Source: Escherichia coli (GTDB taxonomy: Bacteria > Pseudomonadota > Gammaproteobacteria > Enterobacterales > Enterobacteriaceae). From it: a DNA stretch of 64,000 nucleotides. The notes under the pieces are model-generated. The model made no database searches and was not told the origin of the DNA. It saw nothing but the letters and a program-made list of their open reading frames with translations. The position numbers and the translations under genes are program-made. The stretch lies in NCBI RefSeq assembly GCF_003334815.1, contig NZ_QOWO01000005.1, one strand, 5' to 3'. Of the stretch, positions 22,761-22,935 are shown one piece after another. Every line of letters begins with the position of its first letter. The stretch's first letter is position 1.

Positions 22761-22935
22761 TACTCCACTCCTGCTATGCTTAAGAAATTATTCATAGACT
22801 CTAAATAATTCGAGTTGCAGGAAGGCGGCAAACGAGTGAAGCCCCAGGAGCTTACATAAGTAAGTGACTGGGGTGAACGAATGCAGCCGCAGCACATGCA
22901 ACTTGAAGTATGACGAGTATAGCAGGAGTGGCAGC
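22761..22935. repeat. ERIC (IRU) element with flanking perfect 13-bp inverted repeat
   Basis: Core gtgaagccccaggagcttacataagtaagtgactggggtgaacg matches the ERIC1R/ERIC2 consensus region; arms CCACTCCTGCTAT (22765-22777) and ATAGCAGGAGTGG (22919-22931). Confidence 0.8.

Follow-up and report, generated by a model that had tools for sequence, protein, structure and literature searches.

Does the 13-bp inverted repeat that surrounds a repetitive element between the genes dxs and yajO belong to that element or to the host locus, and what does it do to the expression of yajO? The question concerns the 179-bp spacer from the dxs stop codon to the yajO ATG in a K-12-like stretch of Escherichia coli DNA of 64,000 nucleotides (RefSeq assembly GCF_003334815.1, contig NZ_QOWO01000005.1), hereafter the window. 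The spacer carries an element of the enterobacterial repetitive intergenic consensus/intergenic repeat unit (ERIC/IRU) type, and a sequence-only reading of the window had attributed the repeat to this element and proposed that it hides the yajO Shine-Dalgarno (SD) sequence. We find that the repeat is the stem of an older hairpin and that ERIC entered its loop. We slightly favour the view that this old, conserved hairpin and a sigma-S promoter of yajO's own make the translation of yajO depend on where its transcript originated.

The repeat itself, its coordinates and the gene layout are all as the sequence-only reading had them (Table 1). CCACTCCTGCTAT and ATAGCAGGAGTGG form a perfect 13-bp inverted repeat, extendable in a repeat search to 16 nt at 94%; none of 3000 shuffled spacers contained a perfect 13-bp inverted repeat, the longest reaching 11. 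The right arm does carry the yajO SD, as AGGAG is located at 22924-22928 within ATAGCAGGAGTGG, 7 nt from the ATG. The description of the spacer as almost entirely ERIC was correct in the identity of the element but not in its extent, which is 125 bp (~70%), the other 54 bp being ancestral spacer. Nor is the element neatly bracketed, because the left arm stops 17 nt short of it and the right arm overlaps its last base.

The age of the repeat was read from a 501-nt query spanning the junction, searched against 5426 complete E. coli genomes. A full-length, ERIC-filled match is present in 2844 of them, and 2582 carry an ERIC-less allele, 125 bp shorter; the latter include O157:H7 and B2 strains such as NU14. 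In the alignment of filled and empty alleles, the empty site reads TAA TCCCTACT CCACTCCTGC TATGCTTAAGAAATTATTCATG GCAGGAGTGG CAGC ATG. It already contains a 10-bp stem (CCACTCCTGC/GCAGGAGTGG) around a loop of 22 nt, with the SD inside the stem, and a perfect 10-bp repeat appeared in only 7 of 20000 shuffles of the 54-nt empty spacer. ERIC occupies the 3′ end of this ancestral loop. Two of the three extra base pairs of the window's repeat come from the ERIC-terminal AT and the third from a G>A substitution at 22921, which turned a U-G pair into a Watson-Crick pair; K-12-like alleles make up ~7 of 16 evenly sampled ERIC-filled genomes. Of the 13 bp, 10 were in place before the insertion, and ERIC is a later passenger in an older hairpin. 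The empty-site alleles also rule out that the repeat is the terminal repeat of ERIC or a target duplication.

Conservation was followed beyond E. coli in a genome scan with YajO, from which the best 80 of 525 loci, representing 80 species, were taken (genera sampled include Escherichia, Citrobacter, Salmonella, Enterobacter, Klebsiella, Raoultella, Kosakonia, Leclercia and Kluyvera). In all 80 species examined, dxs lies directly upstream of yajO and a hairpin sequesters the yajO SD, which forms its 3′ arm 4-9 nt from the start codon. The spacers of 76 species lack an intact ERIC and measure 54-85 nt, and in each of the 76 predicted folds the region following the dxs stop is paired with GCAGGAG and the bases after it, at -19 to -41 kcal/mol. 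Across the alignment of these 76 species, 86% of the cells of a 15-bp helix are paired, compared with at most 52% when the partner strand is slid. Compensatory double changes were detected at five pairs, among them 25:73 (GC 28, GU 28, AU 8, UA 2) and 23:75 (CG 47, UA 10, UG 8). The observed covariation value was reached by 0 of 500 shuffles on any of five measures, all of them statistics that ignore kinship. Because the frequent G-U pairs are A-C mismatches on the other strand, the alignment indicates that the hairpin is selected as sense-strand RNA. A palindromic protein-binding site was also considered and is unlikely, given an arm spacing of 22 to >40 nt and the frequent G-U pairs. Searched against Rfam 15, the empty-site hairpins yielded chance-level matches only, none at gathering score, and our literature searches found no description of a dxs-yajO hairpin. 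The hairpin and the promoter embedded in it, described below, appear to be undescribed, ERIC being already known. In E. coli A2, E. albertii (L006) and Citrobacter sp. MGH106, GCGGGAG replaces GCAGGAG; these alleles have a weaker SD (AGGAG to GGGAG) and keep the stem as a U-G pair.

Folding of 22757-22940 (-80.4 kcal/mol, z = -7.85) joins the arms in a long-range stem in both the minimum-free-energy and the centroid structures, in line with the pairing that the sequence-only reading had envisaged. For transcripts that include the left arm, the predicted probability of AGGAG being unpaired is 0.000, with or without ERIC, and opening the ribosome-binding site would cost 15-27 kcal/mol. In an RNA starting at 22787, which lacks the left arm, the SD is predicted to be unpaired with a probability of 0.41-0.63, at an opening cost of 3-4 kcal/mol; in one starting at 22842 it is partly free (0.43). 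Judged by these values, the left arm would act as an anti-SD and block yajO translation in read-through RNA. The occlusion proposed for dxs read-through RNA is supported by predicted pairing, SD access and covariation; it most likely silences the read-through RNA and does not control yajO's own mRNA, because RNA from the candidate yajO promoter would start after the anti-SD. Translational coupling by ribosomes that finish at the dxs stop is unlikely. The stem starts 8-20 nt past that stop and, to judge from footprint size, a ribosome there would melt at most its outer pairs. The stretch after the stop (22757-22764 in the window, 8-20 nt in loci L005-L084 of the survey) is C/U-rich and G-poor in most species, e.g., TCCCTCCCCTTTCC; it could be a loading site for Rho or could keep the terminating ribosome off the stem.

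What the occlusion proposal had overlooked is a near-invariant extended -10 element of sigma-S type, TGCTATGCTTAA, that overlaps the left arm. Within it, GCTATGCTTAA (22773-22783) agrees at 11 of 11 positions with the sigma-S -10 consensus KCTAYRCTTAA (Weber et al. 2005, as quoted in PMC5650638), and the preceding T completes an extended -10. No other perfect match to this consensus occurs in the 64-kb window, against an expectation of 0.16. The stretch CCTGCTATGCTT has approximately zero entropy in the 80 species, compared with 1.1-1.26 bits at synonymous sites of the 30 neighbouring codons in dxs and yajO; the sigma-S motif is perfect in 68/80 species and TGnTAYRMT is present in 80/80. Pairing accounts for the constancy of CTCCTGC, but not for that of TATGCTT, whose partners vary. 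From the position of this motif we infer a yajO start near 22787, ~7 nt past TATGCT and downstream of the anti-SD, which would give a yajO 5′ untranslated region (UTR) of ~23-34 nt in ERIC-less species.

Published expression data bear on this promoter. In Salmonella Typhimurium, 439 yajO reads in the wild type compare with 45 in an rpoS mutant (adjusted P = 1.3e-13), whereas dxs (104 versus 152) is not significantly affected and ispA is unchanged (PMC4014581). The representative of this species has a 56-nt spacer without ERIC. As yajO is rpoS-dependent and dxs is not, Salmonella yajO must have an rpoS-dependent promoter of its own at or next to the spacer. For E. coli, sigma-S regulation of yajO is reported by Peano et al., citing Weber 2005.

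The other source of yajO RNA is the upstream operon, xseB-ispA-dxs-yajO being listed as one transcription unit (PMC4421995). A search of the spacer gave no terminator-like site, and the stem is followed by CAGCAUG or GGAACCAUG, with no U tract. In K-12, a Term-seq 3′ end of 38352 reads lies at ~22937, 1 nt into yajO and ~6 nt past the stem (PMC7815308 supplements 1-3; window position = 461072 - U00096.3 position). Its published intrinsic score of 1.03, below the cut-off of 3.0, together with the missing U tract, argues against an intrinsic (Rho-independent) terminator; its Rho score is 2.89, with a 'Yes' call, and it is placed in a significant Rho-termination region. A Rho-termination region begins at ~23014, ~78 nt into yajO (PMC7815308). 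In the same study, a 5′UTR+ORF (open reading frame) fusion starting at 22764, and hence including the anti-SD, was >2-fold higher in a rhoR66S strain (PMC7815308). The idea of a stabilising 3′ structure for dxs mRNA, also raised in the sequence-only reading, fits this strong 3′ end at the hairpin base, which is not of the intrinsic type (PMC7815308). Both the SD occlusion and the dxs 3′ stabiliser are supported, as properties of the ancestral hairpin and not of ERIC. A paper on RNase III that mentions 'yajO' (PMC5371410) does so by a slip for yajQ and is irrelevant here.

We propose the following course of events. Transcripts of xseB-ispA-dxs run into the spacer because no intrinsic terminator follows dxs, as the 3′ end just past the hairpin also shows. 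The 5′ arm of the hairpin, an anti-SD of the form xxxCTCCTGC just past the dxs stop, would pair with the yajO SD region, GCAGGAGxxx. Read-through RNA has both arms, and its hairpin would lock the yajO ribosome-binding site; the untranslated yajO leader would then be open to Rho termination ~80 nt into the gene, and the terminated RNA would be trimmed back to the hairpin, which would become the protective 3′ end of dxs mRNA. The published pattern of Rho termination and 3′ ends is what such a chain, from locked SD through untranslated leader and Rho to exonuclease trimming, would be expected to leave. Transcripts from TGCTATGCTTAA would begin at ~22787, lack the anti-SD and be translatable, so that yajO translation would depend on which promoter made the RNA. 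The hairpin might in this way insulate stationary-phase yajO from the essential growth-phase operon. In about half of E. coli, ERIC lies between the -10 and the SD and lengthens both the helix and the predicted yajO 5′ UTR; in the K-12 lineage ERIC and the G>A change at 22921 complete the 13-bp repeat and would create an antisense promoter.

Several observations weigh against this proposal. No start site has been mapped near 22787, and a sigma-S peak from chromatin immunoprecipitation sequencing (ChIP-seq), at 22826-22966 of the window, misses the hexamer at 22775-22780 (PMC4447067). A study of glucose-limited chemostat cultures lists yajO as cAMP-dependent, not rpoS-dependent. The blockage by the left arm is a thermodynamic prediction. 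In the Salmonella rpoS mutant, YajO protein is 1.8-fold lower, compared with a 10-fold difference in mRNA (PMC4014581, PMC5437024 supplements), so the protein stays abundant there; it may be long-lived, or other yajO transcripts may be translated. The 'entire 5′ UTR' of yajO as cloned by Adams et al. starts at 22764, upstream of the anti-SD (PMC7815308), and Kim et al. 2012 give a yajO start at 22842, inside ERIC (437453 in U00096.2; 19 reads). Position 22842 opens the ERIC apical hairpin as its first base, and nothing resembling a -10 hexamer precedes it; it is probably a processed, exonuclease-resistant 5′ end and not a promoter start. The searched portion of the Kim 2012 tables lists no Klebsiella pneumoniae yajO start site, and that of the Cappable-seq tables has no entry at the coordinates looked up.

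The published 5′ ends lead to a different account, in which yajO mRNA starts at ~22764 from the candidate sigma-70 element TGGCATAAT and every yajO transcript is locked by the hairpin at its 5′ end until a trans-acting factor opens it or processing does, e.g., by RNase III or RNase E in the ERIC helix, leaving 5′ ends like that at 22842. TGGCATAAT is a good extended -10, the Adams et al. construct begins at the matching position (cloning primer TCCACTCCTGCTATGCTTAAG, PMC7815308 supplement 4), RNA with the 5′ end of Kim et al. has a partly accessible SD, and RNase III products are abundant in the region. Yet the key A2/T6 positions of TGGCATAAT are kept in only 25/80 species, whereas the hairpin and TGCTATGCTT are universal; ERIC-less stems, at 13-17 bp, are short for RNase III; 22842 looks like a processed end, as said; and the 10-fold rpoS dependence in Salmonella suits the sigma-S motif, not TGGCATAAT. 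We regard this account as distinctly unlikely. The strong Rho-dependent 3′ end at the hairpin base, the failure to find an intrinsic terminator and the C-rich, G-poor tract ahead of the stem in most species would also suit a hairpin that serves mainly as the 3′-end structure of dxs operon mRNA, blocking exonucleases, with an SD overlap that is incidental or merely ensures Rho loading and no promoter-dependent switch of translation. For that purpose any sequence would do, yet the 3′ arm coincides with the yajO SD in every species of the survey, and the invariance of TATGCTTAA is left unexplained; we consider this explanation unlikely as a full account, although it is largely compatible with promoter-dependent translation and does not exclude it.

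The invariant TATGCTTAA might itself be an RNA-level loop motif that binds a protein or a small RNA and not a promoter, as it sits in the 5′ part of a conserved RNA loop, is more constant than pairing needs and has no mapped start site to its credit. Against this stand its complete match to an independently derived sigma-S consensus, including C at -13 and TAA, the lack of an Rfam family match, and the rpoS-dependent, dxs-independent yajO mRNA of Salmonella, which needs a promoter in or next to the 56-nt spacer; we think such a motif very unlikely. That the inverted repeat is a functionless by-product of ERIC insertion, either a terminal repeat or a target duplication, is hardly credible: it does flank ERIC, and three of its 13 bp stem from the ERIC end and a later point mutation, but no ERIC-less E. 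coli lacks the other 10 bp, and 76 ERIC-less species have the stem, with compensatory changes.

An ERIC in the same loop position and orientation as in E. coli is found in Phytobacter diazotrophicus, P. ursingii and Kosakonia sp. S29 (spacers of 186-187 nt); P. massiliensis has an empty site, and the metagenome-assembled genome UBA3516 (85 nt) an internally deleted ERIC remnant. Over the aligned spacers, flanks included, the Phytobacter/Kosakonia elements share only ~71% identity with the copy in E. coli, which suggests at least two independent ERIC insertions at one place, each sparing the -10, the predicted start site and the SD. The position looks like an insertion hot spot or the sole tolerated site. 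Compared with the filled TTCA-TAGAC...GAGTA-TGG, the E. coli target TTCATGG contains no TA, and an AT duplication is the most it would allow; a TA duplication would be consistent with the Phytobacter site. Some E. coli, as well as E. albertii, carry a longer form of ERIC at the Escherichia site, enlarged by an internal insert of 78 bp.

In the K-12 lineage the insertion appears to have had a further consequence. Read on the minus strand, the junction of right arm and ERIC end is CCACTCCTGCTATACTCGTCATACTT, which contains the extended -10 TGCTATACT (22924 to 22916) with a classical sigma-S hexamer context. This element needs both ERIC and A22921: with G the hexamer is CATACT instead of TATACT, and the empty site gives TGCCATGAA. 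It lies within the sigma-S ChIP-seq peak (PMC4447067), which fits the antisense promoter better than the sense -10. Cluster S-43 of p19-captured double-stranded RNA produced by RNase III corresponds to 22716-22902 and is the fourth most abundant of the coding-gene clusters; in its authors' view it arises from an antisense RNA that is not annotated and that has a start site on the antisense strand (PMC7373196). S-43 directly adjoins the antisense start predicted here, at ~22909-22911, and an antisense Term-seq 3′ end, 438373(+), falls at 22699 of the window (PMC7815308). The K-12 allele probably makes an antisense RNA of ~210 nt that ERIC-less strains lack. Taken as a whole, the ~55-nt spacer may throughout the Enterobacteriaceae combine a translation lock on yajO, a Rho trigger that yields the dxs 3′ end and the housing of a sigma-S promoter, ERIC having inserted at least twice without harm to any of the three, and the K-12 junction may have evolved a sigma-S-bound antisense promoter that feeds one of the most abundant RNase III double-stranded RNA clusters; we put forward this composite picture tentatively, with somewhat less than even confidence that all its parts hold together.

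The closest parallel is provided by the insertion sequences IS10 and IS50, for which fold-back inhibition of transposase translation was reportedly described by Davis, Simons and Kleckner in 1985 and by Schulz and Reznikoff in 1991. Read-in RNA pairs with the transposase ribosome-binding site, and RNA from the element's own promoter starts downstream and is translated. By analogy, the logic proposed here is the same, with an anti-SD upstream of the gene's own start and only the read-through RNA silent. Unlike in IS10/IS50, the gene is a chromosomal metabolic one behind an essential operon and not a transposase; its candidate promoter is of sigma-S type and sits inside the hairpin; and the silent RNA would in addition be Rho-terminated and trimmed to form the 3′ end of the upstream operon. 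RNA thermometers and riboswitch platforms likewise hold an SD near the start codon in a stable stem, but the yajO stem shows no ligand- or temperature-sensing features and, at -19 to -41 kcal/mol, is too stable to melt physiologically, the proposed relief being promoter choice. With repetitive extragenic palindromes (REP) and other intercistronic 3′ stabilisers (Higgins et al. 1982, as cited in PMC3184786), the hairpin shares its stability and the strong RNA 3′ end; it differs in being single-copy and locus-specific and in having the SD of the next gene as its 3′ arm.

The possible uncoupling of the two genes matters, as dxs encodes the first, flux-controlling enzyme of the methylerythritol phosphate (MEP) isoprenoid pathway and current annotation gives YajO as another route to the Dxs product, deoxyxylulose phosphate (DXP); it bears on isoprenoid engineering and on stationary-phase physiology. 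If true, it would be a chromosomal case of promoter-dependent translation, or fold-back insulation, with Rho in place of a classical terminator. The ERIC polymorphism, common in E. coli, and one single-nucleotide change would extend the yajO 5′ UTR from ~25 to ~150 nt and add an antisense promoter, and therefore K-12 transcript maps of the yajO locus are no guide to O157, B2 strains or Salmonella. Two published K-12 observations can also be reinterpreted in this light, namely the sigma-S ChIP peak that had been ascribed to yajO and p19 cluster S-43, described as 'new antisense'.

Table 1 Features of the dxs-yajO junction, in window coordinates
Feature	Position	Strand	Basis or remark
dxs coding sequence, 620 aa	20894..22756	+	Open reading frame list; RefSeq annotation of identical K-12 sequence; stop TAA 22754-22756
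Candidate sigma-70 extended -10 TGGCATAAT	22749..22757	+	Sequence; overlaps dxs stop; start would be near 22764
Left arm, anti-SD, CCACTCCTGCTAT	22765..22777	+	Ancestral 10-bp part CCACTCCTGC, 22765-22774
Extended -10 TGCTATGCTTAA, candidate yajO promoter	22772..22783	+	Overlaps 3′ part of left arm and start of loop; hexamer TATGCT 22775-22780
Residual ancestral loop, 5′ of ERIC insertion point	22778..22794	+	Alignment of filled and empty alleles
ERIC/IRU miniature inverted-repeat element, 125 bp	22795..22919	+	Filled versus empty alleles, inverted repeats, primer sites
ERIC long arms	22795-22819 / 22897-22921		
ERIC apical hairpin	22842-22873		
Antisense extended -10 TGCTATACT	22916..22924	-	Ancestral arm and ERIC terminus; predicted start ~22909-22911
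Antisense RNA over ERIC, left arm and dxs 3′ end	22699..22911	-	Inferred extent
Right arm ATAGCAGGAGTGG, with yajO SD	22919..22931	+	Ancestral part 22922-22931
Derived G>A substitution, K-12 lineage	22921	+	G in other ERIC-filled and in empty alleles
yajO coding sequence, 324 aa	22936..23910	+	Open reading frame list; RefSeq annotation of identical K-12 sequence

The identity of the inserted element deserves a separate account. ERIC/IRU sequences are reportedly ~127-bp repeats of the Enterobacteriaceae resembling miniature inverted-repeat transposable elements, as described by Sharples and Lloyd in 1990 and by Hulton and colleagues in 1991. We recognised the core by the classical ERIC-PCR primer sequences ERIC1R and ERIC2, which match with one mismatch each at 22836-22857(-) and 22858-22879(+), adjacent and outward-facing. 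The element is an imperfect palindrome, with 25-nt arms at 76% and apical arms of 14 nt, and in each E. coli genome the 501-nt query, of which ERIC is the only repeatable part, has matches in several places (median, 6). The 125-bp insert shares with known ERIC/IRU copies the core, the long imperfect palindrome, the multicopy state, precise presence or absence, and an intergenic, co-transcribed position, here in the dxs-yajO spacer within one operon (operon listing in PMC4421995). In Yersinia, co-transcribed ERICs affect how stable the adjoining mRNA is (De Gregorio et al. 2005, as summarised in PMC3184786). The locus differs from other ERIC sites in that the 13-bp repeat and the SD occlusion belong to the host and are older than the insertion, and in that the TA duplication is not visible at the E. 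coli site.

No ERIC family was found in Rfam. The Rfam model V_AS5 ('Vibrio RNA AS5') aligns in full length with ERIC, its positions 1-129 corresponding to 22794-22917 of the window, at 52.5 bits (E = 4e-10), below the gathering score of 96; V_AS5 may itself be an ERIC-like repeat. Downstream of yajO, a REP-like palindrome, GCCTGATGAGACGTGACAAGCGTCACATCAGGC, lies at 23918-23951, just past the yajO stop and between the convergent genes yajO and pgpA, and gives a weak, sub-threshold match to Rfam naRNA4 on the minus strand (E = 0.14).

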